In this document: one piece after another, positions 4,902 through 26,825 of the stretch
Numbering within the stretch: position 1 is the stretch's first letter
Layout: each line of letters begins with the position of its first letter
Virus record (IMG/VR): IMGVR_UViG_3300024308_000008
Span: 1-59,499 of that record
Origin: a virus
DNA length: 59,499 nt
Reading direction: 5' to 3' (one strand)
Program-made: the position numbers and the translations under genes
The notes under the pieces: generated by a model
Databases searched by the model: none
The model's input: only the letters and a program-made list of their open reading frames with translations
Told to the model about the DNA's origin: nothing

Positions 4902-5275
4902 TTCAGTACGCAACCCTCGACTGGCAAATGCACGTACCGCCGGTCGGGGGTAAGTCAACGCTCTACCACCAGCTTTGCAACATCCGAAAGCAAACAGGTA
5001 AAACCCCTCACCAGCTTCAAGCTTACGAAGACTCTAAACTTCCCGAAGAGTTGGCCTACATTTATGCTTATTTCCGGGACTTTTACAATGGCGGCCAATT
5101 CAGTTATACTGAGCTGCAATCCTGGCAAGCCTTTTCTAAAATTGAGCTCACTTACATTGAAGCCGAGTTGATACGACAGCTTTGTCTGGAGCATCAACAC
5201 TTCACCTTCAAGAGACAGCAAGCTCACCAAGAATATCTTGTCAATAATCCGCCAAAGCCTAAGGGTAAGAAATAA
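4512..5275 (+). CDS. Tail assembly chaperone frameshift fusion (lambda GT analogue); -1 shift at 4874-4880
   Basis: Frame arithmetic: 4512 is frame 0 and 4928 is frame -1. There are no stops in the -1 frame between 4880 and 4928. The product ends 1 nt into the tape measure start. Confidence 0.55.
4874..4880 (+). promoter_or_regulatory. -1 programmed frameshift slippery heptamer T_TTT_TTC
   Basis: The zero frame reads CTT TTT TTC. The -1 frame is open from 4880 into track ORF 4928..5275. Confidence 0.6.
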
Positions 5276-16559: not shown

Positions 16560-17483
16560 TCAGAATAACTCCTGGATTCGCGGTGTGAAAACTCGGGATT
16601 CCTTGTGAGTGTTAATACGATTAGCGATCTGCCGATAAGCCCACATGTTAAAGGTGGCCCGGGTTTCGTAAATTGTGGTTAAACGTTCAAGATCAAACCC
16701 GCTGTCTTCGATAAGCTTCTCAATGTAAGCCTTTTCGATAGGTAGCAAGTTCAAAACATGCTTACCCATGTCATGTATAGTCCCAGCCTTTTCGGAGACA
16801 CGATAAGGCACCCCGTCTGGTGTAAACATGGACCCATAGGCCCCGAACTGTATCCAGGACGACGAGTCGACAGAATACCAAGGGTACCGCTCCATTACAC
16901 GAACGGATGTGATACCAAAAGCGTGAAGTTTGGTCTTAGGACGGCCAGCTCCATCGATAATATAGCGCTCCCAAATCCTGTCGAGCCATGTGATGAGCTG
17001 CTCGACAGTTTTTCCAACCATTCCTCCGAGGGTGATATAGGGGTAGTTCGCGAGGTAGAACTCAAGATACCTTTCATCTTCCCCAAAGTGGAAGCAGGGA
17101 AGGGGTCTAACCCCTCTGGCTTCCATCTCCAATTGGTTTCGGTAGGTTTGCAAGGGGTCGCCGATGCCGTCAAGCACTGAAGCCATAACGACTCCGTCGT
17201 CTTTTCTAATGATATCCTCATTTTCTTGTATATATCGGCAGTACCCTGGGAGGCTAATTGTAGCTCCCATGTTCCAAGCGGAGAAAGCACCGGAGTCGAG
17301 GAAAACTTGAGCGCCGTCTGCACGCATTTCGTCGACGGCTTTTTGTCTGTGAACATAGTGATAAGATTCCAGTATGTTGGGTATAGTATCCACTATATTG
17401 GCTTCGCGCTCGTTCAGCTTAGGGTAGGTGCTCTGACCCTTGCGAAATCCGTTTGTGTACACAGCAGCAAGATATAGGTTCAC
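16560..17483 (-). CDS. dpdA: DpdA-family 7-deazaguanine DNA transglycosylase (TGT fold)
   Basis: 'QVFLDSGAFS' and 'PYITLGGMVG' TGT-like motifs. GTG start follows GGAG. It is the last gene of the deazapurine operon. Confidence 0.8.
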   Translation of the reverse strand: MNLYLAAVYTNGFRKGQSTYPKLNEREANIVDTIPNILESYHYVHRQKAVDEMRADGAQVFLDSGAFSAWNMGATISLPGYCRYIQENEDIIRKDDGVVMASVLDGIGDPLQTYRNQLEMEARGVRPLPCFHFGEDERYLEFYLANYPYITLGGMVGKTVEQLITWLDRIWERYIIDGAGRPKTKLHAFGITSVRVMERYPWYSVDSSSWIQFGAYGSMFTPDGVPYRVSEKAGTIHDMGKHVLNLLPIEKAYIEKLIEDSGFDLERLTTIYETRATFNMWAYRQIANRINTHKESRVFTPRIQELF

Positions 17484-17499
17484 TTCCGCTCCAATAAGA

Positions 17500-17517
17500 A
17501 AGGGCCCGTAGGCCCTT
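17500..17517 (-). terminator. Hairpin / possible attenuator between folE and dpdA
   Basis: The minus strand reads aagggcc-tacg-ggccctt followed by tcttatt. Confidence 0.35.
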
Positions 17518-17537
17518 AGTATATAACAGCTTTATGC

Positions 17538-18173
17538 TCAGTTACAGGCTTGAGCAAACTCGGAGCGCCAGATCACCTCTTGCTGGGTGAGAGACGCCCC
17601 CCGCTCTTGGGAGGGGAGGCGCACAGCCCGTGTAATCGTGCTGGAGCCGCACACCTGCTTGATGCCACGGCTTTCCATGCACATGTGTTTGGCGTCAATA
17701 TAGACGAACACAGCGCGAGGGTTGAGGTAGAAAGCCATGGCGTCCGCGATCTCGTTAGTGAGACGTTCCTGCACTTGCAGACGGCGAGAGAAGGCGTCGA
17801 CCAGCCGTGAGAGCTTGGACAAGCCTACTATGCGCCCGTCGGGGACGTAGCCCACAACCGCCCGGCCAATGATCGGCGCCATGTGGTGTTCGCAGTGGCT
17901 ATAGACAGGGATATCGCGAACGATAACCAGCTCATTAGCCCCTTCCGCCCCGTCCTCGAAGGTTTTGAACAAACCTGGGATGTCAACATCGTAACCGCCG
18001 AACCAGGTTGCAAACGCTTTTGCTACACGGGCAGGGGTTTCCTGGAGGCCTTCCCTCAAAGGCGTCGTGATACTCCCGGCACTACCTTCGCGAGCTTCGA
18101 TAGCACACAAAAGCTGTTGCACTGCACTCTCGATGATCGGTGCGCGGTTCACAATACGGGCAATCTTATCCAT
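17538..18173 (-). CDS. folE: GTP cyclohydrolase I
   Basis: 'VYSHCEHHMAP', 'GLSKLSRLVDAFSRRLQVQERLT', 'KHMCMESRG'. Confidence 0.9.
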   Translation of the reverse strand: MDKIARIVNRAPIIESAVQQLLCAIEAREGSAGSITTPLREGLQETPARVAKAFATWFGGYDVDIPGLFKTFEDGAEGANELVIVRDIPVYSHCEHHMAPIIGRAVVGYVPDGRIVGLSKLSRLVDAFSRRLQVQERLTNEIADAMAFYLNPRAVFVYIDAKHMCMESRGIKQVCGSSTITRAVRLPSQERGASLTQQEVIWRSEFAQACN

Positions 18174-18182
18174 GTGGTTACC

Positions 18183-18419
18183 TTATTTCTTGAAATGACG
18201 ATACAGGGCACGAACAGCGATAATGATCCAGAAAATTTCGATCATGAAGCTGCCCAGGTTGAAGTGGAAGCACAAGCTGATAATCAGCAGTACAGCCCCC
18301 ACCAGGTTGACAACATTAAACTTTATGCTGTCAGCCGACCACCCTTTCGGGCTGGTAACTTTGTAATACGCGAGCACGATGCAGATCATGCCCAGAAAAC
18401 CTAGAACTTGGGTAAACAT
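18183..18419 (-). CDS. 78-aa three-TM membrane protein (small SemiSWEET/CBU_0592-like architecture), function unknown
   Basis: The start is a TAATG overlap with the queD stop. It has three hydrophobic spans and a basic C-terminus 'RALYRHFKK'. Confidence 0.6.
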   Translation of the reverse strand: MFTQVLGFLGMICIVLAYYKVTSPKGWSADSIKFNVVNLVGAVLLIISLCFHFNLGSFMIEIFWIIIAVRALYRHFKK

Positions 18420-18985
18420 TACTTGGTGTACTCCACGTGACACTTGCTGGTTTCTTCGATGGTGCAGCTTACCAGCTCAACTCCGTGCTCGTCCAGCAGC
18501 ATCGGGCCAACCACGTTAACCATGTGAGCGGCGAGGTTTTCAGCGGTAGGGTTGAAAGGCAAAGCTACCATAGACCCCAGAAAGTGATCGCGGCTGGAAA
18601 CCCCTACGCTGCGCACAAGAGCTGGTCGGGTATTGTCGTCTTCGATCAGTTCCCGGATGCCTTTGATCAGGTTGTCTTTCTCCCAGTGCAGGAATTTGTG
18701 ATCCCAGTTGTCCTCAAGCCACTGACACAGAGTTGATTTAACCACACTGAAGTCGATCACTCGTCCCAGGGAGTCCAAACTGACAGGAACCTCCTCCAAG
18801 AGAGGGGCAGTCACTGCGCCTAAGGTGACGGTCGCGCCCTTGTACTCGAGCTTTGTTTCGTGTTTAGGTTGAACCTTGAAACGAAAAACATAGTTGTGAC
18901 CGTGCAGGTGGCGGCACTTGCTTTCATGACCTACTACGCGGTGACCGGCACAAATCTCGTGCGAGCGAATTACAGAATATGACAT
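18419..18985 (-). CDS. queD: 6-carboxy-5,6,7,8-tetrahydropterin synthase
   Basis: 'CAGHRVVGHESKCRHLHGHNY'. The start was moved to ATG 18985 (MSYSVIRSHE), 1 nt after the upstream stop. Confidence 0.9.
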   Translation of the reverse strand: MSYSVIRSHEICAGHRVVGHESKCRHLHGHNYVFRFKVQPKHETKLEYKGATVTLGAVTAPLLEEVPVSLDSLGRVIDFSVVKSTLCQWLEDNWDHKFLHWEKDNLIKGIRELIEDDNTRPALVRSVGVSSRDHFLGSMVALPFNPTAENLAAHMVNVVGPMLLDEHGVELVSCTIEETSKCHVEYTK

Positions 18986-18986
18986 T

Positions 18987-19187
18987 TTAAATCTCCAGAT
19001 TACTAGGTTTAACACCGCACACAGGCCAAACCCACACAACAGGTCTACCGCTTGCTAACGTTTCGCTTTCGCTCATTTCTATTTGCACAGACATACCTTT
19101 CTGGCAAGCTGCTGCTAGCGCGGCGTTAAGGTTACGAGCTGCCTCTTCGCAAGCCGCTTGCAGCTCTTTAGCTTCTTGAATTTTCAT
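18987..19187 (-). CDS. Hypothetical 66-aa protein inside the deazapurine operon
   Basis: Tightly packed and co-directional; its start overlaps the upstream gene's stop (ATGA at 19184-19187). Confidence 0.5.
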   Translation of the reverse strand: MKIQEAKELQAACEEAARNLNAALAAACQKGMSVQIEMSESETLASGRPVVWVWPVCGVKPSNLEI

Positions 19188-19423
19188 TTCGGTGCCCCGG
19201 GTGCTGTGATGCGTTTGTGCAGTTCGCCCGCTGCCGCCTCGTATTCCGGCCAGTCGCGGTTGATAAAAATACCCTCCAGTGGCTCTTTGCCTACAGCTTT
19301 GCGGTAGGTGTCTATCGTTTCTTGGATTTCTTCCAAGGCTTCACGTTGGTCGAGTGAAAGGAAAGCTTTGACGTCTTCAAGCTTCAGAACGACATACCGT
19401 TGTTGGAACCTTTTGTCTTTCAT
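19184..19423 (-). CDS. Hypothetical 79-aa protein inside the deazapurine operon
   Basis: ATG 19423 lies 1 nt after the yhhQ-like stop (MKDKRFQQRYVVLKLEDV...). Confidence 0.5.
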   Translation of the reverse strand: MKDKRFQQRYVVLKLEDVKAFLSLDQREALEEIQETIDTYRKAVGKEPLEGIFINRDWPEYEAAAGELHKRITAPGAPK

Positions 19424-19424
19424 A

Positions 19425-19916
19425 TCAGCCCTCGTTGAGAACAGGTTGGTTGCGCTTACGTGCTTCATAAACTGCATACAGTATCGCAGAGGCTGCAAAC
19501 TTCGACAAGCTCATTGCCAGTATAGAGCCCCAGCTAGCGTACCCAATCAAAGTCAAGAACAATGCAGAGTCTACGGGCACCGCTACCAAAGAACTGATCG
19601 CGACCCGCTGGTGGAATGGCTTTTTCGTGATAGTGAAAATGGCGTAATCGAGCATCTCACTGACAGCAAAGGAGGCGACGGAGGCATAAACCACAACAGG
19701 GTCGCCCAACAGGTAGCTGATAACGCACGCGACAAAGATGGCCCACAAAACGTGGTGCCCTGCTGCCCGTTGCGCATAATCTCGCAACACAAACACAAGC
19801 CCCACAAACAGCGCCATCGCAGGGACAGGGCCCAGGGGAGTGCTCAAGGTGGGCAGGTAGCTGAAGCCCAGGTTAACGAAAACAACCATTGCCAAGTAAG
19901 CCAGAATGAAGTGCAT
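19425..19916 (-). CDS. yhhQ: YhhQ/VUT-family queuosine-precursor (preQ0) transporter-like 6-TM protein
   Basis: 'VLRDYAQRAAG', 'SFAVSEMLDYAIFT' and 'VPVDSALF' motifs. The start was moved to ATG 19916 (MHFILAY) to avoid overlap with queC. Confidence 0.7.
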   Translation of the reverse strand: MHFILAYLAMVVFVNLGFSYLPTLSTPLGPVPAMALFVGLVFVLRDYAQRAAGHHVLWAIFVACVISYLLGDPVVVYASVASFAVSEMLDYAIFTITKKPFHQRVAISSLVAVPVDSALFLTLIGYASWGSILAMSLSKFAASAILYAVYEARKRNQPVLNEG

Positions 19917-19974
19917 AGTTTTTACTCTCTTGATAGTTAAGGGCGGGGCTAGGTTTCTTCTAGCCCCGGTGGGT

Positions 19975-20733
19975 TTACTTGTTGGAAGCGTATTCCTTGT
20001 AACCCGCTTCGCGCAGGTTACAGGCCGGGCACTGTCCGCAGCCGTAGCCCCAGTCGTGCAAGGTGCTGTGGTCCCCGTTGTAACAGGTGTGGGTGTCGTT
20101 GATGACGGTTTCCAGGATACCCACCTTTTCAGCAAGCTCGAAGGTTTCCGCTTTCGTGAGGTGCATCAGCGGAGTTACGAACTCGATGTCAGTTTCGTAA
20201 CCTTCGTTGAGGGCGCATTGCAGTTGAGTCACGAAACCTTGACGACAGTCGGGATAACCAGAGTAATCCGTTTCACAGACCCCAGTCATGACGAAGTGGG
20301 CGCCTACCTTTTGGGCGAGGGCGTGAGCTGTGGTCAAGAACAGCGCATTGCGGTTCGGCACAAACGAAGCCGGCAGGTTGGCGTTTTGGCTATGCCGTTC
20401 GTTGACATCAGTCTGTTCGCTACCAGAAACCAGCGCACTGTTGCCCAGAGAACGCAGAGCAGGTATTTCGAAGACGTGCAGTTCAACCCCGAACTTGCGG
20501 CAAATCATCGAAGCACATTGCAGTTCAACGGCGTGCTTTTGACCGTAGCTGAAAGCCACTGCCGTCACGTGGTCGTACAGCTTCAAAGCCAGCCCCAGGC
20601 AGGTTGTGGAATCTTGCCCGCCGGACAACACAACAACAACGTCGTTGTTAAGCCCCGCTTTATTCCGCGGAAGCACTTTGCTCCCCTCAACGTGGAGGAG
20701 GCTTTCAACTTTGCTAACACGTTCGTGATTCAT
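19975..20733 (-). CDS. queC: 7-cyano-7-deazaguanine (preQ0) synthase
   Basis: 'VVVLSGGQDSTTC' PP-loop, C-terminal Cys cluster 'CGQCPAC'. No fused amidotransferase domain is present. Confidence 0.9.
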   Translation of the reverse strand: MNHERVSKVESLLHVEGSKVLPRNKAGLNNDVVVVLSGGQDSTTCLGLALKLYDHVTAVAFSYGQKHAVELQCASMICRKFGVELHVFEIPALRSLGNSALVSGSEQTDVNERHSQNANLPASFVPNRNALFLTTAHALAQKVGAHFVMTGVCETDYSGYPDCRQGFVTQLQCALNEGYETDIEFVTPLMHLTKAETFELAEKVGILETVINDTHTCYNGDHSTLHDWGYGCGQCPACNLREAGYKEYASNK

Positions 20734-20734
20734 A

Positions 20735-21445
20735 TCATTCTACCTTCAAAATTTTGTGAATTTGAAGCTGCACAGTGTAATCGTGCGCCATTGCAGTCAA
20801 AACAGTTTCTTCCGTGTTGCGCCCGTTGGCGATCGGGTCCTGCTCGTCCCTGGGCTGCACGTAAATAATACCGCCGAAGTATTTATCAGGTCTAGCGATG
20901 CAAGGGGTGGCCTGGTGGCCGAGCGCTTGGTAGGGGAGGCCATCTGAAGGGTCCAGGTTGCCTGCTGTAACCACATACTTGAATGCGTCAACGACCCCCG
21001 CAACAGAAGGGTGGAGCTTTGCAGTTTTTGGGCTGCAAACGACAGTCACCATCCCACTGAGGAGGGCTTCGTCGATCTTCATTGTGCCGTTTGTTTCGAC
21101 TTGCACCTCCCAACCAGCGGCAATCAGCGTATCGAAAAGCGGGTACACGTTTTGACGGAAAGGCTCACCGCCTGTTACAACAACCAGGGAGCTTTTACCA
21201 TTTTTCTCGCTGTGCTTATAGTTGATGTTCGCGAGGATTGTCTCGACGCTCATTCTCTCCCGCTGCGACGTGTAATCGGTGTCGCAGCCAGGGCATTGCA
21301 AGTTGCAGCCAGCAAGGCGGACGAAAACAGCAGGGCGGCCTGCGAAAGGGCCTTCCCCTTGGATGGTGTAAAAAATGGAGTGGACTTCAAGAGAGCCGGA
21401 CTTGTTGTGGTCACGTGGCTCAGTAGACTGGGCGTTAGAGATCAT
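20735..21445 (-). CDS. queE: 7-carboxy-7-deazaguanine synthase (radical SAM)
   Basis: 'FYTIQGEGPFAGRPAVFVRLAGCNLQCPGC'. The start was moved to ATG 21445 because the track's GTG start lies inside the upstream terminator hairpin. Confidence 0.9.
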   Translation of the reverse strand: MISNAQSTEPRDHNKSGSLEVHSIFYTIQGEGPFAGRPAVFVRLAGCNLQCPGCDTDYTSQRERMSVETILANINYKHSEKNGKSSLVVVTGGEPFRQNVYPLFDTLIAAGWEVQVETNGTMKIDEALLSGMVTVVCSPKTAKLHPSVAGVVDAFKYVVTAGNLDPSDGLPYQALGHQATPCIARPDKYFGGIIYVQPRDEQDPIANGRNTEETVLTAMAHDYTVQLQIHKILKVE

Positions 21446-21490: not shown

Positions 21491-21516
21491 AAAAACGCCC
21501 ACTTGGGGGCGTTTTT
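21491..21516 (-). terminator. Rho-independent (bidirectional-type) terminator upstream of queE
   Basis: aaaaacgccc-acttgg-gggcgttttt. Confidence 0.6.
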
Positions 21517-21538: not shown

Positions 21539-22309
21539 TTAGTCCAGCAGACCTGCCGGCATCGGGGTAGCGACGCGACCGGTGATCCCGTTGAAGGTTT
21601 TCCAGCGGGCGTACTGGGTCTTGGCAGTATCCTTGTTCAGACCCTTGGATTCGGCAGCTTGCAGGGCGTAAGCCACCGGGACCGGCGCACCCATCTTGGC
21701 GGACATCGCGTCGAACAGAGCCCAGCACTGACCGCAAGCGGTATCCGGGCGAGGGCGGGTGATGCCGTTTTGCTGGGGCTGGGCGTTCGCAGCTTTCTCC
21801 GCTTCACGCTTGGCCTTGGCTTCAGCCTTTTCACGCTCCTTGGCAGCCTTCTTGGCTTCGGCTACTTTGGTTTTCAGCGGGTCGGTCAGATCGGTGATCT
21901 GTTTCAGCAGCTCAGCGGCGCTGGCGGAAGCTTGCGCCAGGGATTCCACGCTCTTGTTCGAGCTCGCCAGGGCTGCGATTTCCTTGGCGAGAGCCTTGGC
22001 GCTCTTGACGGCATCAGTGGTACCTGCGACGACCAGTTGCACCTGTTCCACGGTAGACTCTGCGTTCAGAGAAGCGACCTGGGTGCCAACAGTGGCGTGG
22101 ACGCCTTGCAGCTCAGTGAACTTGACGCCAGCTTCTTCCAGGGCCTTTTGGCCTTTTTCTTGAGCAGCCTTGGCTTTCAGCTCGTCGTTGGCTTTTTTGG
22201 TGGCGGCAGCTTTTTCTTGCTTTTGAGCTTTAGCCTTTTCAGCAGCCTCTTTCTTGGCTTGCAGGGCAGCGGCCTTTTTTTCTTCCAAGGTCAGGTCTTT
22301 ATTTTCCAT
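21539..22309 (-). CDS. Lys/Ala-rich coiled-coil protein with a C-terminal putative winged-helix DNA-binding domain (KfrA-like architecture)
   Basis: GGAG RBS. The coiled low-complexity body is followed by 'NGITRPRPDTACGQCW...NKDTAKTQYARWKTFNG'. Confidence 0.55.
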   Translation of the reverse strand: MENKDLTLEEKKAAALQAKKEAAEKAKAQKQEKAAATKKANDELKAKAAQEKGQKALEEAGVKFTELQGVHATVGTQVASLNAESTVEQVQLVVAGTTDAVKSAKALAKEIAALASSNKSVESLAQASASAAELLKQITDLTDPLKTKVAEAKKAAKEREKAEAKAKREAEKAANAQPQQNGITRPRPDTACGQCWALFDAMSAKMGAPVPVAYALQAAESKGLNKDTAKTQYARWKTFNGITGRVATPMPAGLLD

Positions 22310-22915: not shown

Positions 22916-25903
22916 TCAGAAAGGTATATCGTCGAAATCTTCTTCGTCCTTTTGTACTGAAGAGTTCATCGACTGGACTACGTTAACCATTGGGGTCGAA
23001 GCGTGCGCTGGTAAATATGCCTCGTCATCGTCGTAGCTCGTGCCGTGATTTTGCTGCTCACCGACGTTGTTGGACAGTATAGCGTTCTTGGTGTAGATCT
23101 GAACCCCAACGGAAGTTGTTTGAGCTTCCCTCTCCCCGAAACGCGAACCGTCGTAGCAGCACGCGAGAACTATAGGCCACTTGACGTTGGTGTGAACCCT
23201 AATCTGTGTTGGCACAGCGAGCTGGTTTATAACGTCCAAAGCATCGTCGACACTTGCAGGCAAAGGCAAGGGCGACCTTATCGTCCACCACTTGTAAGCT
23301 TTGCGCCCTGCCCAATCCGAGTGCTGCAAGCAAACATATTCGACGAACGTTTTGTGACCACAATAGTACGTCACTTTCAAAGTAGGCGGCTTGCTCCTGT
23401 CACCCCTGTTAACGTTTTTCTGGTAAACAACGTTTTCAACGTCGAACACTTCGATAACAGGCATCTGGTTTTTAACCAGCTCTTCGCTGCTGGCAGCTCT
23501 TTTCAGCTTCTCTTTAAAAGTGAACGGGGCGCCACAAAAGCCTATACCAGGCTTGAAAGCAGCGTCTTCTGCTGATACCCCACCGCAGAAGCGCCACGCA
23601 GGGTATTGACCGTCGGTGCCACAAACTTCACAGGACTTGTAAATAGGCGCACCACCTCCTTTTTGACCGGGCCGTCGGGGCACAGCAGGATCGTTGATAG
23701 GCCCAAGTTTGCGACTGTTGCCCGAGAAGTCCAGGACAAGGCAATTCTGTTTATCGCTAGCAGCAATTGCCGCTAACCTTTGCTCCCTGTCCGACAGGTC
23801 AAACCCAGGGGCGTAAACTGGGCGCGTGCCCCGGCCCAACATTTGCACCCACAGCACAGGCGACCCTGTAGGGCGAAGCATGATTATGAGGTCTATGTCC
23901 GGGCAGTCGAAGCCTGTTGTCAACACATTGTTATTGGTCAAAGCCATTAGCTTGCCCGACTTGAAGTCAGCAATAGCTTGGTCGCGCTCTTTGCCTCCCA
24001 TTTTGCTATGCACCGCACAGGCTTTCACCCCGTTCTGGTTCAACAGCGCTGCGAAGTCTTCTGCGTGCTCGACCCCTGCACAAAACACCAGCCACTTCTT
24101 GCGGTCACCCGCTACAGCTAGCGCCTCGTTCAAAGCAAGTTGGTTGGCTTCAGCTTTGTTCACAGCAGCTTGCAGCTCGCTCGAGATGTATTCCCCTCCG
24201 CGCTTACCTACACCAGAAACGTCAAGCTGCATCTTGGTGCGCTTGGGTATCAAAGGCATAAGGTAACCTTCGCTGATAAACCAGTTGAAGTATTCAACGG
24301 AGGAGCCGTCAAACACAATGTGGTCAAACATTGCGCTAACACCAAGCTCTTCGTCACCTTCCTGGCGAACAATAGGACCGAAGCCCATTCTAAAAGCTGT
24401 AGCGGTAAAGCCAATGATTTTTAGGTAAGGGTTTCTCTCACGCAAAGCAGCAAAGAATGCCTGGTACATCGTTTGGTCTTTGGGTGAAATCAAGTGGCAT
24501 TCGTCAACAAGTATTAAAGAGACGGAGCCAAACAAGTGTGCTTTCTTTGCGACAGAAGCAATCCCAGCGTAAATAATCTGGTCGTGGACGTCTTTCTTTT
24601 TCAAACCAGAAGAGTAGATACCCAAAGGGGCTTCTGGCCAGAGCTCTTTCAGTTTAGCGGCGTTTTGGGCGATAAGCTCCTTAACGTGCGTCAGCAACAT
24701 GAGCTTTTGCCCAGGCCACCACTGGCAAATAAGTCTCATAAACTCTGCCAGGCAAATGCTTTTACCTGTGTTGTGGTGGACAATAAAGTCGCTTGTCAAA
24801 TACAAATGATCAGAGTCCAAAGTAAAGCCATAGAAGTCATCTTCAGGTAAAGCTTCTATTTCCAAGCCTGTGCAAAGAACATCTTTGATCTGTTTGCGAG
24901 GAGACGCCTTCTTATAGCCTAGCCTAACGGGTATAAGGTCGATATCCCCGCTCAAACAAACGTTGTAAGCTTTGGATATAAATTTGCCGTTCAATGTTGC
25001 ATCTTTTTCAAACAAAGTAGCTTGCAACCCTAAGCTACGTGCAACAAATCGAACACCTTCCGAAAGGTCTTTGGATACACTTGTGAAGGTGTAAGTATTC
25101 GATTTGTCGTAATACCCATCTGAATCTAAAAGCCCTGCGAGCAACTCGAGACGCTGCTCGCGGCTTGCCACCTTGTAACAGTCAGGGATGAAGTGAGTAT
25201 AACTATTAGAGCCCCATAAACCCAAGCTATCAAACGCTCGTGTGAAACGGTTACCTTGCTCAGTGGGGTCTGAGATATACGTGTACCAAGCCGAGTCGTC
25301 CTTCTTACTCTGTTTAGCGACACAGAAATTTTCTTCTTGTGCGTAAGTTTCCCACTCTGCCCAGATCTCCTCTTCGCTGCCTGTATAGCTAAGAGTAGCA
25401 GCGTTAAGGAAACCGTCGCCCAACATAAGCCCGAAGATATACGCAGGGACGGGTTGGGCTGCCTGCGGAAACTCGACACCTACCCTGCGTAGCTTACGAA
25501 TATGCTGGAACCAGTTCGAACCAAGCTCGTATTGGTTAACTGTCACTGTTTCAATTTTACTTTCAACACCACGACCAGTCGCACAAACTTTCATGCTCAG
25601 CTTGTGGTCACGGTTAACAACAAAAGACTCCCCTTTCGTGGGTGTTATGCGACGCATCTCTTGCCGACCTCTCGCCAAAGCCAATACGTTGCGAGGTTTG
25701 CTATCAGGACCCATAAGCTGGTCGCCAACTTGAACATCTTGAACCAGTTTAATGGAACCGTCAAACATGAGTATTTCGGAGTCCTTGGCGTGGCACCCCG
25801 TTGGCAGAACAACCACGGGATTGCCTGCTTGAGATTTATGCTTGTCAAAATACCGAAAAATGCTGTAAGTCGCTTCAAGCTGATAGTCACGGGGTTTGAG
25901 CAT
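22916..25903 (-). CDS. SF2 (DEAD/DEAH-type) DNA helicase precursor containing an intein. The predicted mature form is ~653 aa and ends in an acidic ...EEDFDDIPF tip.
   Basis: Motif I is split 'VVVLPTG|C...HN|TGKS'. Motif II is 'LILVDECH' and motif VI is 'QMLGRGTRP'. ATG 25903 was chosen because it lies 1 nt after the upstream stop. Confidence 0.85.
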   Translation of the reverse strand: MLKPRDYQLEATYSIFRYFDKHKSQAGNPVVVLPTGCHAKDSEILMFDGSIKLVQDVQVGDQLMGPDSKPRNVLALARGRQEMRRITPTKGESFVVNRDHKLSMKVCATGRGVESKIETVTVNQYELGSNWFQHIRKLRRVGVEFPQAAQPVPAYIFGLMLGDGFLNAATLSYTGSEEEIWAEWETYAQEENFCVAKQSKKDDSAWYTYISDPTEQGNRFTRAFDSLGLWGSNSYTHFIPDCYKVASREQRLELLAGLLDSDGYYDKSNTYTFTSVSKDLSEGVRFVARSLGLQATLFEKDATLNGKFISKAYNVCLSGDIDLIPVRLGYKKASPRKQIKDVLCTGLEIEALPEDDFYGFTLDSDHLYLTSDFIVHHNTGKSICLAEFMRLICQWWPGQKLMLLTHVKELIAQNAAKLKELWPEAPLGIYSSGLKKKDVHDQIIYAGIASVAKKAHLFGSVSLILVDECHLISPKDQTMYQAFFAALRERNPYLKIIGFTATAFRMGFGPIVRQEGDEELGVSAMFDHIVFDGSSVEYFNWFISEGYLMPLIPKRTKMQLDVSGVGKRGGEYISSELQAAVNKAEANQLALNEALAVAGDRKKWLVFCAGVEHAEDFAALLNQNGVKACAVHSKMGGKERDQAIADFKSGKLMALTNNNVLTTGFDCPDIDLIIMLRPTGSPVLWVQMLGRGTRPVYAPGFDLSDREQRLAAIAASDKQNCLVLDFSGNSRKLGPINDPAVPRRPGQKGGGAPIYKSCEVCGTDGQYPAWRFCGGVSAEDAAFKPGIGFCGAPFTFKEKLKRAASSEELVKNQMPVIEVFDVENVVYQKNVNRGDRSKPPTLKVTYYCGHKTFVEYVCLQHSDWAGRKAYKWWTIRSPLPLPASVDDALDVINQLAVPTQIRVHTNVKWPIVLACCYDGSRFGEREAQTTSVGVQIYTKNAILSNNVGEQQNHGTSYDDDEAYLPAHASTPMVNVVQSMNSSVQKDEEDFDDIPF
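24770..25795 (-). mobile_element. 342-aa intein with a LAGLIDADG homing-endonuclease core, inserted in the helicase Walker A loop
   Basis: The first residue is Cys (TGC, 25793-25795). The last residues are His-Asn (AAC, 24770-24772) and the +1 extein residue is Thr. LAGLIDADG motifs are 'IFGLMLGDGFL' and 'LLAGLLDSDGYY'. Removing the intein restores PTGTGKS. Confidence 0.85.
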
Positions 25904-25904
25904 T

Positions 25905-26825
25905 TTACTTACCGTAATAATGGGCCATTTCGTAATGACTGCAACCTTTAAGTTGCTCCTCGACGTCAAGTGTAGCATTAACCACACTGTGCCGACAATG
26001 CCACTTGCCATCCTCTTTTGCTATCGAGTATCGGCAGGTGCGGCAGTTTCTCAAAGGTTCTTCACCTCTGTAGCAAACACCCGCAAAGTCGCACATCTTG
26101 CATTCGAACCAGCTTGCGCCTTTATTGCTTAACCCAACAGGCGCTTCGTCCGCCCCTGCAATTTGATCGGCACGGTCGAGGAAGTGCATTGCCACCACTT
26201 CATCGTACATCACAATTTCAGCATAGATCTCGTCTGTGTTTTTGTTCGTTGCAAGGTAAAGCGATGCCCGCAAGTCCATCTTGTTCATGTAAACTTGCTG
26301 CTGAACATAGTGCATAAATTTGGATTCTTGCACCCCTTCTTTCTTGAGCTTTAAGAAGGACTTTTCGCCATGCGTCTTCATTTCAGACAAGATAGCGACG
26401 TTCGGGTCTTGTAAGTCCGGGCAGCCTACAACTATGCCGTCTGTAGCTGAGCCAACGTGACCGCCGAAGCTGCTGATGCGAAACTGCTTACCTTGCGCGT
26501 CTTGCTGGTATACCTTCATGCCTGCTGTAAGTAAGGCGGCGATAAAGCGACCTTCCTCCATGTGGCCACGGTTGAAAAGCCTTAAAATACGACCAGAATG
26601 TTTACCCTTGATCACCCAGCGGAACTGGAAGAACAATTTCCGAGCACAAGGGTCGCCGATGGTGCTCAAGCCCAAGTGGCTTCGTGTCCCTTCGCGAGGG
26701 TCGAAAGCATCGCTGATTGTGGGTATAACTCGCCCCAACCATTCACGATATTTAGCACCTTGGTCTTTCTGAATAGATTGTTCAATTGCGGCCATTGTTT
26801 TTTCGGCCAGATAAATGTGAGCCAT
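25905..26825 (-). CDS. PD-(D/E)XK exonuclease, Cas4/RecB-like, with a probable Fe-S Cys cluster
   Basis: 'SATDGIVVG...AILSEMKTHG', with Cys in 'GDPCARK' plus 'ECKMCDFAGVC...CRTC'. Confidence 0.65.
   Translation of the reverse strand: MAHIYLAEKTMAAIEQSIQKDQGAKYREWLGRVIPTISDAFDPREGTRSHLGLSTIGDPCARKLFFQFRWVIKGKHSGRILRLFNRGHMEEGRFIAALLTAGMKVYQQDAQGKQFRISSFGGHVGSATDGIVVGCPDLQDPNVAILSEMKTHGEKSFLKLKKEGVQESKFMHYVQQQVYMNKMDLRASLYLATNKNTDEIYAEIVMYDEVVAMHFLDRADQIAGADEAPVGLSNKGASWFECKMCDFAGVCYRGEEPLRNCRTCRYSIAKEDGKWHCRHSVVNATLDVEEQLKGCSHYEMAHYYGK

Follow-up and report, generated by a model that had tools for sequence, protein, structure and literature searches.

The DpdA of bacterial Dpd systems has the tRNA-guanine transglycosylase (TGT) fold and inserts 7-cyano-7-deazaguanine (preQ0) into DNA (PMC10516641). 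In phage CAjan (Seuratvirus), 2′-deoxy-preQ0 (dPreQ0) is present at 70,628 per 10^6 nucleotides (about 32% of G), dADG, dG+ and dPreQ1 each stay at <6 per 10^6 nucleotides, and a dpdA deletion mutant contains no dPreQ0 (PMC6884629). Modification shields CAjan DNA from enzymes that include EcoRV and HaeIII (PMC6884629, PMC7544227), and the DNA of Enterobacter phage EC151 resists Acc65I, ApaI, KpnI and XmaI, which have G/C-containing sites, and is cut by DraI (PMC8310023). In bacterial Dpd systems, DpdA is complexed with DpdB, and DpdC converts dPreQ0 into dADG (PMC10516641). Here we analyse a gene cluster at positions 16560–21445 of the IMG/VR virus record IMGVR_UViG_3300024308_000008 (positions 1 to 59,499 of that record, the whole of which we call the window), which is very probably, as judged from its sequence, a structure model and its described relatives, a phage module for the hypermodification of DNA with 7-deazaguanine, of the CAjan/Seuratvirus type and predicted to produce dPreQ0.

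A cluster of CAjan type with a four-enzyme preQ0 pathway

The cluster comprises nine back-to-back open reading frames (ORFs), all on the minus strand, with junctions that range from a 4-nt overlap at the tightest to a 58-nt gap at the widest. An earlier note on this DNA, written from the letters alone, had described, with no strand named, nine tightly packed co-directional genes encoding QueE, QueC, QueD, FolE, DpdA and four further proteins. All of these ORFs exist on that strand, the limits of the cluster coincide with the stop codon of DpdA and the start codon of QueE, and every motif quoted in the note is present (CNLQCPGC, SGGQDSTTC, CRHLHGHNY, SHCEHHMAP...QVQERLT, LDSGAFS and LGGMVG). 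The five enzyme identities are likewise borne out by searches with family models, which match each protein far beyond chance.

All four enzymes of the preQ0 pathway are encoded with their catalytic motifs. FolE (Pfam GTP_cyclohydroI, E = 1.1e-56; phrog_2197, 6.9e-67) carries the CEHH and QVQERLT motifs and scores 186.5 bits on NF006826, over the cut-off of 162, and QueC (Pfam QueC, 1.5e-71), which has the SGGQDS PP-loop and the C-terminal Cys cluster, scores 234.9 bits on TIGR00364, over the cut-off of 150.3. These two thus exceed curated NCBIfam cut-offs, and the other two exceed Pfam and PHROG thresholds: QueD (Pfam PTPS, 3.1e-20; phrog_2389, 1.2e-51) contains the CxxxHGH motif, and QueE (phrog_2076, 3.1e-54; Pfam Radical_SAM, 1.1e-08) contains the CxxxCxxC motif in the form CNLQCPGC. 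Identities to the proteins of CAjan, EC151 and Klebsiella phage vB_Ko_K4PH164 (K4PH164) are 65–70% for QueC and 53–60% for QueE, and QueD is 62–65% identical to its counterparts in the relatives. In length, QueE (236 amino acids, aa), QueC (252 aa), QueD (188 aa), FolE (211 aa) and DpdA (307 aa) agree with their homologues, and the cluster genes are intact.

By analogy with the described systems, FolE would convert GTP into dihydroneopterin triphosphate, QueD would form 6-carboxytetrahydropterin from it, the radical SAM enzyme QueE would yield 7-carboxy-7-deazaguanine, and QueC would turn this into preQ0. DpdA, a predicted TIM-barrel transglycosylase, would then put preQ0 in the place of guanine in the double-stranded phage DNA once this has been replicated, so that dPreQ0 results. 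In the proposed reaction the enzyme would turn the G out of the helix, an attack of Asp206 on C1′ would produce a covalent intermediate, and Asp63 would then deprotonate the incoming preQ0. A YhhQ-like membrane protein probably imports preQ0 to supplement synthesis and is likely to be dispensable. DNA modified in this way would resist restriction enzymes that have G in their sites.

The arrangement of the genes is that of the known phage systems. Searches with tblastn of the window proteins against the clusters of CAjan, EC151 and K4PH164 found six named proteins (the five enzymes and the YhhQ-like protein) at 53–88% identity, and the order QueE-QueC-YhhQ-QueD-FolE-DpdA-clamp-polymerase is common to the relatives. 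With CAjan, the window shares these six genes in identical order, the adjoining clamp and DNA polymerase genes, an unfused QueC and protein identities of 53–70%, but no similarity at the nucleotide level. The nearest isolates are EC151 and K4PH164 (Queuovirinae, with no genus given in their records), with which synteny is shared and identity reaches 88% for DpdA, 79% for the YhhQ-like protein and about 70% for the clamp. Enterobacteria phage 9g (Nonagvirus) resembles the window in DpdA1, FolE, QueD, QueE and overall genome architecture.

A predicted DpdA1-type DNA-guanine transglycosylase

The 307-aa protein encoded at the downstream end of the cluster matches phrog_887 (2.7e-84), is 88% identical to proteins of EC151 and K4PH164, and is 63.5% identical to the DpdA of CAjan (over its full length) and to those of Seurat and many other Escherichia phages. 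A plain sequence search against PDB chains returned nothing beyond noise (best E = 0.66), so a comparison of folds was needed. The AlphaFold2 model, built with 45 homologues, is confident (pLDDT 90.4, pTM 0.87), and a Foldseek search of it against the PDB gave 97 matches at E ≤ 0.001. All 50 matches listed are tRNA-guanine transglycosylases, the best being the Pyrococcus archaeosine TGT (ArcTGT) structures 1j2b (E = 1.5e-7) and then 1iq8, at a query-normalized TM-score of 0.54. The archaeosine TGT is also the template family that Kot et al. 2020 used for CAjan DpdA (PMC7544227). The earlier note had made the presence of a TGT/DpdA fold in this protein one of the points on which its prediction turned, and both the model and its listed structural matches agree with that fold.

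According to Kot et al. 2020, the pocket of CAjan DpdA is formed by Ser64, Phe67, Asp105, His132, Gly153, Gly154 and Phe189, Asp206 serves as nucleophile and Asp63 serves as general base (PMC7544227). The window protein retains all nine of these residues at identical numbering (D63, S64, F67, D105, H132, G153, G154, F189 and D206), and they are invariant across the alignment of 45 homologues. Together, the sequence comparisons and the model support its assignment as a DpdA1-type DNA-guanine transglycosylase, for which insertion activity on double-stranded DNA is predicted.

dPreQ0 as the predicted final base

The identity of the final base depends on what follows preQ0. The presence of QueC, over its equivalog threshold, argues against a pathway that halts at CDG or ADG. 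Routes to dPreQ1, dG+, mdPreQ1 and fdPreQ1 require tailoring, according to PMC10516641. The QueC of the window consists of the QueC domain alone, in its 252 aa, and lacks a fused Gat domain, whereas 9g makes dG+ with a Gat-QueC in which a glutamine amidotransferase is fused. A Pfam scan of the 74 other window ORFs (25 from the replication module, 24 from the early region and 25 structural, nearly all of the remaining ORFs of at least 40 aa) returned no QueF, GATase, ArcS, methyltransferase or formyltransferase; the sole QueF match was a weak T-fold cross-match within FolE, as expected. No DpdB- or DpdC-like protein was found among the window ORFs, in contrast to the bacterial Dpd systems. The note's statement that QueF, a QueC-fused amidotransferase and an ArcS-like gene are all missing therefore holds for these ORFs, and its predicted product gains support from CAjan, which makes dPreQ0 with the same enzyme set. 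Given no tailoring enzyme in the window and the CAjan precedent, dPreQ0 is the best-supported product, and we infer from the relatives that the enzymes of the module would be active and would protect the DNA from restriction. GA and GGC contexts account for 28.8% of window G (27.9% in a 15-kb CAjan fragment); if DpdA keeps the GA/GGC specificity of CAjan, about 29% of G would, speculatively, be replaced.

Several observations weigh against this interpretation. DpdA has no Pfam match and reaches 20.9 bits on NF041059, the model for DpdA of bacteria, for which the cut-off is 200, a score that also sets it apart from the bacterial Dpd systems. QueD scores 60.4 bits on TIGR03367, under the cut-off of 89.25, because of an internal insertion that is common to the relatives, and QueE scores 74–85 bits on the NCBIfam QueE models, under their equivalog cut-offs. 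The assignments of QueE, QueD and DpdA are therefore based on profiles of phage families, on motifs, on the fold and on homology to CAjan. Three members of the cluster, orf79, orf66 and a 78-aa protein with three predicted transmembrane helices (the 3-TM protein), have no assigned role. An identity of 63.5% is too low for confident transfer of the sequence specificity of DpdA, and modification levels reported for DpdA1 lie between 0.1 and 30% of G (PMC10516641).

An alternative is that the DNA is modified but that its final base is dADG, dPreQ1, dG+ or a further derivative, made from preQ0, either ahead of its insertion or afterwards, by a host enzyme such as QueF or an uncharacterized ORF of the cluster. 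Phage DpdA2 is promiscuous and new derivatives are still emerging (PMC10516641), and traces of dADG occur in Rosebush DNA (PMC6884629). The three proteins that carry no assigned function could in principle supply such a step, but at 66–79 aa they are judged too small for known tailoring enzymes, and the scanned ORFs contain no QueF, Gat, ArcS, DpdC-like, methylase or formylase domain. E. coli, the host of CAjan, is QueF-positive, which also counts against a different final base. With CAjan DNA showing <6 of the other derivatives per 10^6 nucleotides (PMC6884629), we consider this alternative improbable.

DNA rather than tRNA as the probable substrate

The genes could also be read as auxiliary metabolic genes that raise the preQ0 or queuosine pool of the host for tRNA modification and translation and leave the phage DNA unmodified. 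Their label in PHROGs is 'moron, auxiliary metabolic gene', and that of DpdA is 'queuine tRNA-ribosyltransferase'. The transglycosylase itself, however, has 307 aa, against 576–577 aa in the ArcTGT chains 1j2b and 1iq8, and lacks their C-terminal tRNA-binding domains; it is orthologous to CAjan DpdA, on which DNA modification depends (PMC6884629), and its gene lies inside the DNA replication module, adjoining those of the sliding clamp and the DNA polymerase. Pfam scans of the other ORFs found neither QueA nor QueG in the window, which, together with the missing QueF, leaves no enzymes there to finish queuosine. We regard a role confined to host tRNA as very unlikely. The idea of a remnant cluster that is inactive or in decay deserves hardly any credence, since nothing specific points to it beyond the fact that some members of DpdA1, that of phiSM for instance, had no activity on expression in E. 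coli (PMC10516641), and it is contradicted by ORFs that are all full length with intact catalytic motifs, by conservation of the cluster in many related contigs with DpdA at 94–98% identity, and by the invariance of the catalytic residues of DpdA.

Layout of the locus

The features of the locus and of related loci are collected in Table 1. Start codons were picked by upstream Shine-Dalgarno-like sequence and by the length of homologues; at their best starts, the two tiny ORFs between the YhhQ-like gene and queD encode 79 and 66 aa. For QueE, the ATG at 21445 was preferred because a GTG further upstream, at 21502, sits within a terminator-like hairpin. This hairpin occupies the spot held in EC151 and K4PH164 by a tRNA-Ser gene upstream of queE, which the window lacks; a tRNA scan of the window detected no tRNA gene. 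It and a second hairpin of this kind, in the gap between folE and dpdA, are both GC-rich and lie at the edge of the operon or within it. An Rfam scan of the whole window, covering preQ1 riboswitches and other RNAs, gave nothing at gathering score.

Upstream of queE lies a gene for a Lys/Ala/Glu-rich protein (phrog_11298, 5.2e-59) that is conserved in all relatives, whose annotations describe it as an 'FtrA domain' transcriptional activator; the protein is a candidate regulator of the cluster. The helicase gene beyond it encodes a DEAD/ResIII protein of 1031 aa, compared with about 577–663 aa in relatives, and the excess length is made up by an intein that has Hint and LAGLIDADG homing-endonuclease domains and is inserted in the P-loop (junctions LPTG/C and HHN/TGKS).

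Table 1. Features of the gene cluster and its surroundings in the window, and of loci in related sequences (prefixed by locus).
Feature	Position	Strand	Length or remark
QueE, predicted 7-carboxy-7-deazaguanine synthase (radical SAM)	20735-21445	minus	236 aa
QueC, predicted preQ0 synthase, no fused amidotransferase domain	19975-20733	minus	252 aa
YhhQ/QPTR-like membrane protein, putative preQ0 transporter	19425-19916	minus	163 aa
orf79, small soluble ORF	19184-19423	minus	79 aa
orf66, small ORF	18987-19187	minus	66 aa
QueD, predicted 6-carboxytetrahydropterin synthase, internal insertion	18419-18985	minus	188 aa
3-TM membrane protein, CBU_0592 family (PF26604)	18183-18419	minus	78 aa
FolE, predicted GTP cyclohydrolase I	17538-18173	minus	211 aa
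DpdA, predicted DpdA1-type DNA-guanine transglycosylase	16560-17483	minus	307 aa; GTG start, GGAG upstream
Terminator-like GC-rich hairpin in the folE-dpdA gap (54 nt)	17500-17517	minus	AAGGGCCTACGGGCCCTT then TCTTATTGGA; consensus match only
Strong terminator-like hairpin just upstream of queE	21491-21516	minus	ten-pair stem AAAAACGCCCCCAAGTGGGCGTTTTT, then T-rich tail
Lys/Ala/Glu-rich protein, candidate regulator	21539-22309	minus	256 aa
DEAD/ResIII helicase with intein	22916-26011	minus	1031 aa
Patches similar to Aeromonas phages	10-200; 4972-5244; 18870-19043		85-91% nucleotide identity
Unassigned ORFs in isolate clusters	EC151, L001 3861-4613; K4PH164, L002 3820-4548; CAjan, L003 4687-5256		189-250 aa
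3-TM homologue loci	L004 6001-6240; L020/L021 6001-6219; L011 5995-6249; L015 4995-5249; L014 4998-5243
Mobile-type nucleases in the clusters of relatives	L007 4572-4994; L008 2820-3242; L006 4360-4860

Core and variable content of the cluster

All the relatives have the five enzymes together with the YhhQ-like protein, and the small ORFs vary. The cluster of the window, with nine genes against 12 in CAjan, is the most compact among those examined. The earlier note had called the membrane protein YhhQ/VUT with six transmembrane helices. In line with YhhQ are a match to phrog_4899 (4.6e-40), 79% identity to the EC151 and K4PH164 proteins and 65% identity to its CAjan orthologue, gp41 ('putative preQ0 transporter'), which the literature terms YhhQ (PMC7544227). 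On the other side, Pfam Vut_1 scores 23.9 bits, under the gathering score of 27.2, in a partial match (profile positions 65–138 of 152), TIGR00697 scores 19.7 bits against a cut-off of 50.95, and hydropathy gives four strong segments and two weaker candidates, which leaves six helices plausible. A CAjan yhhQ deletion mutant retains wild-type modification (PMC7544227).

The small ORFs differ from phage to phage. The orf79 product matches phrog_7810, phrog_7432 and phrog_4330, all of unknown function, at 1.9e-15 to 6e-13; tblastn found no homologue of it in the clusters of CAjan, EC151 and K4PH164, and we treat it as variable accessory cargo. The orf66 product matches no family among Pfam, NCBIfam and PHROG profiles and shows weak similarity (31% over 45 aa, E = 0.003) to a small ORF after QueE in K4PH164. 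CAjan lacks orf79, orf66 and the 3-TM protein. Conversely, none of the unassigned ORFs of the CAjan cluster is matched in tblastn by a cluster protein of the window, and the PHROGs families of its gp44, gp43, gp40, gp39, gp36 and gp34 are unmatched by any scanned cluster ORF.

Each of the three isolate clusters also contains an unassigned ORF of 189–250 aa, which in EC151 and K4PH164 (242–250 aa) lies between QueC and YhhQ. The EC151 and CAjan ORFs have a common C-terminal domain (phrog_2452 and related families), and the K4PH164 ORF was scanned against Pfam only. The window has no such ORF, so the core pathway can do without it. In the closest metagenomic relatives an endonuclease VII-like ORF stands between yhhQ and queD, and in some close relatives a NUMOD3 homing endonuclease stands between folE and dpdA; neither occurs in the window. 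Whether CAjan, EC151 and the close relatives share tailoring enzymes among their extra ORFs was considered and rejected: these ORFs look more like variable cargo, as they belong to unrelated PHROGs and one is endonuclease VII-like.

A three-helix membrane protein of the CBU_0592 family

The gene between queD and folE encodes the 3-TM protein, for which the earlier note had proposed three transmembrane segments. Its AlphaFold model does contain three helices (pLDDT 84), and the protein matches the CBU_0592 family model NF047864 at 73.1 bits, over the cut-off of 25 (1.3e-20), as well as phrog_13859 (2.6e-21); homologues carry the precomputed annotation PF26604. The family motif NLxGAxLLxxSLxxHFNxxSFxIExFWI is conserved, with the invariant polar residues N38, H52, N54 and E61, which by inspection lie within membrane helices.

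The gene recurs at different positions in 7-deazaguanine clusters. In the window and its close relatives the order is QueD-TM3-FolE; in a 57-kb contig (L004) and an IMG/VR contig (L017) it is YhhQ-TM3-QueD; and in two further IMG/VR contigs (L020 and L021) it is QueC-TM3-QueD, with no YhhQ homologue detected in the ~12-kb locus, so that the gene stands where such clusters otherwise have YhhQ. By tblastn, the protein occurs in 74 phage records, mostly from Vibrio (62) and Pseudomonas (11) phages. In Vibrio phages VH7D and nt-1, which belong to a group known for DpdA2 systems (PMC10516641), the gene directly follows a QueE-like gene, and in Pseudomonas phage PA5oct it overlaps the end of the dihydrofolate reductase gene.

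These positions raise the tentative and rather doubtful idea that the 3-TM protein is an unrecognized component linked to the pathway, namely a small permease that would act as an oligomer and carry preQ0 or a related precursor of 7-deazapurine or pterin type. Against such a role, bacterial CBU_0592 homologues have no queuosine genes nearby: in Campylobacter the neighbour is an agmatine deiminase gene, and in metagenome contigs, marine and other, it is a PpnN-domain gene. In L012 and L019, two loci of Vibrio-siphovirus type, the sequence fetched has no queuosine-pathway gene near the 3-TM gene, the clusters of CAjan, EC151 and K4PH164 manage without it, and Foldseek of the monomer model against the PDB gave no significant match (best E about 1). 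Matches to SemiSWEET structures are weak (5uhq, probability 0.63, rmsd 18 Å) and speak neither for nor against a SemiSWEET-like protein. A holin, suggested by the small size, three transmembrane segments and basic C-terminus, is judged less likely, as the family is conserved in bacterial chromosomes and has invariant polar residues in its helices.

The name CBU_0592 is mentioned by no paper in the searchable literature, and the available part of a 2024 survey of queuosine-precursor transporters names other transporter families but not this one (PMC11130926). The 3-TM protein is the sole element of the cluster not accounted for in that literature, and is the one new testable lead.

An uncultured lineage with Queuovirinae architecture

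The window is 59.5 kb long, and its products include tape measure, tail tube, terminase and capsid proteins as well as a helicase, a ligase and a dUTPase. Judged from this gene content, it is the genome of a siphovirus, of a size usual for Queuovirinae and with synteny to EC151, K4PH164 and CAjan, and it has the characters of that subfamily: a siphovirus of about 57–61 kb, the cluster beside clamp and polymerase genes, and a helicase gene upstream. A nucleotide search of 50,697 phage records found no nucleotide-level relative of the cluster, with matches restricted to short patches. Metagenomic contigs of 58–66 kb encode DpdA at 94–98% identity, and one 57.9-kb contig and two shorter fragments, reached through a DpdA of 97% identity, contain the same cluster, including the 3-TM gene. 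The window thus represents a real, recurrent, uncultured lineage.

In the search of phage records, three patches resembled Aeromonas phages AP1 (254 kb) and phiARM81mr (Table 1), one of them spanning the 5′ end of queD. Such patches could reflect gene exchange, and hence could hint at the host.

The system is already known in kind, and the phage lineage is new at the nucleotide level. The 7-deazaguanine module is a hallmark of the subfamily Queuovirinae and had already been described for EC151 (PMC8310023), so the note overrated its novelty.

Implications

If the prediction is true, the DNA of this phage would resist many restriction enzymes and its nanopore signals would shift at modified G, both of which bear on cloning, sequencing and host-range work. 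The window adds a divergent lineage, without a nucleotide-level relative among isolates, to the dPreQ0 systems of Queuovirinae type, and its comparison with the relatives separates a core of five enzymes and a YhhQ-like protein from interchangeable cargo. Missing queuosine-precursor transporters are explicitly sought (PMC11130926); should the 3-TM protein prove to move preQ0 or preQ1, the salvage of queuosine precursors would gain a transporter family of very small proteins.

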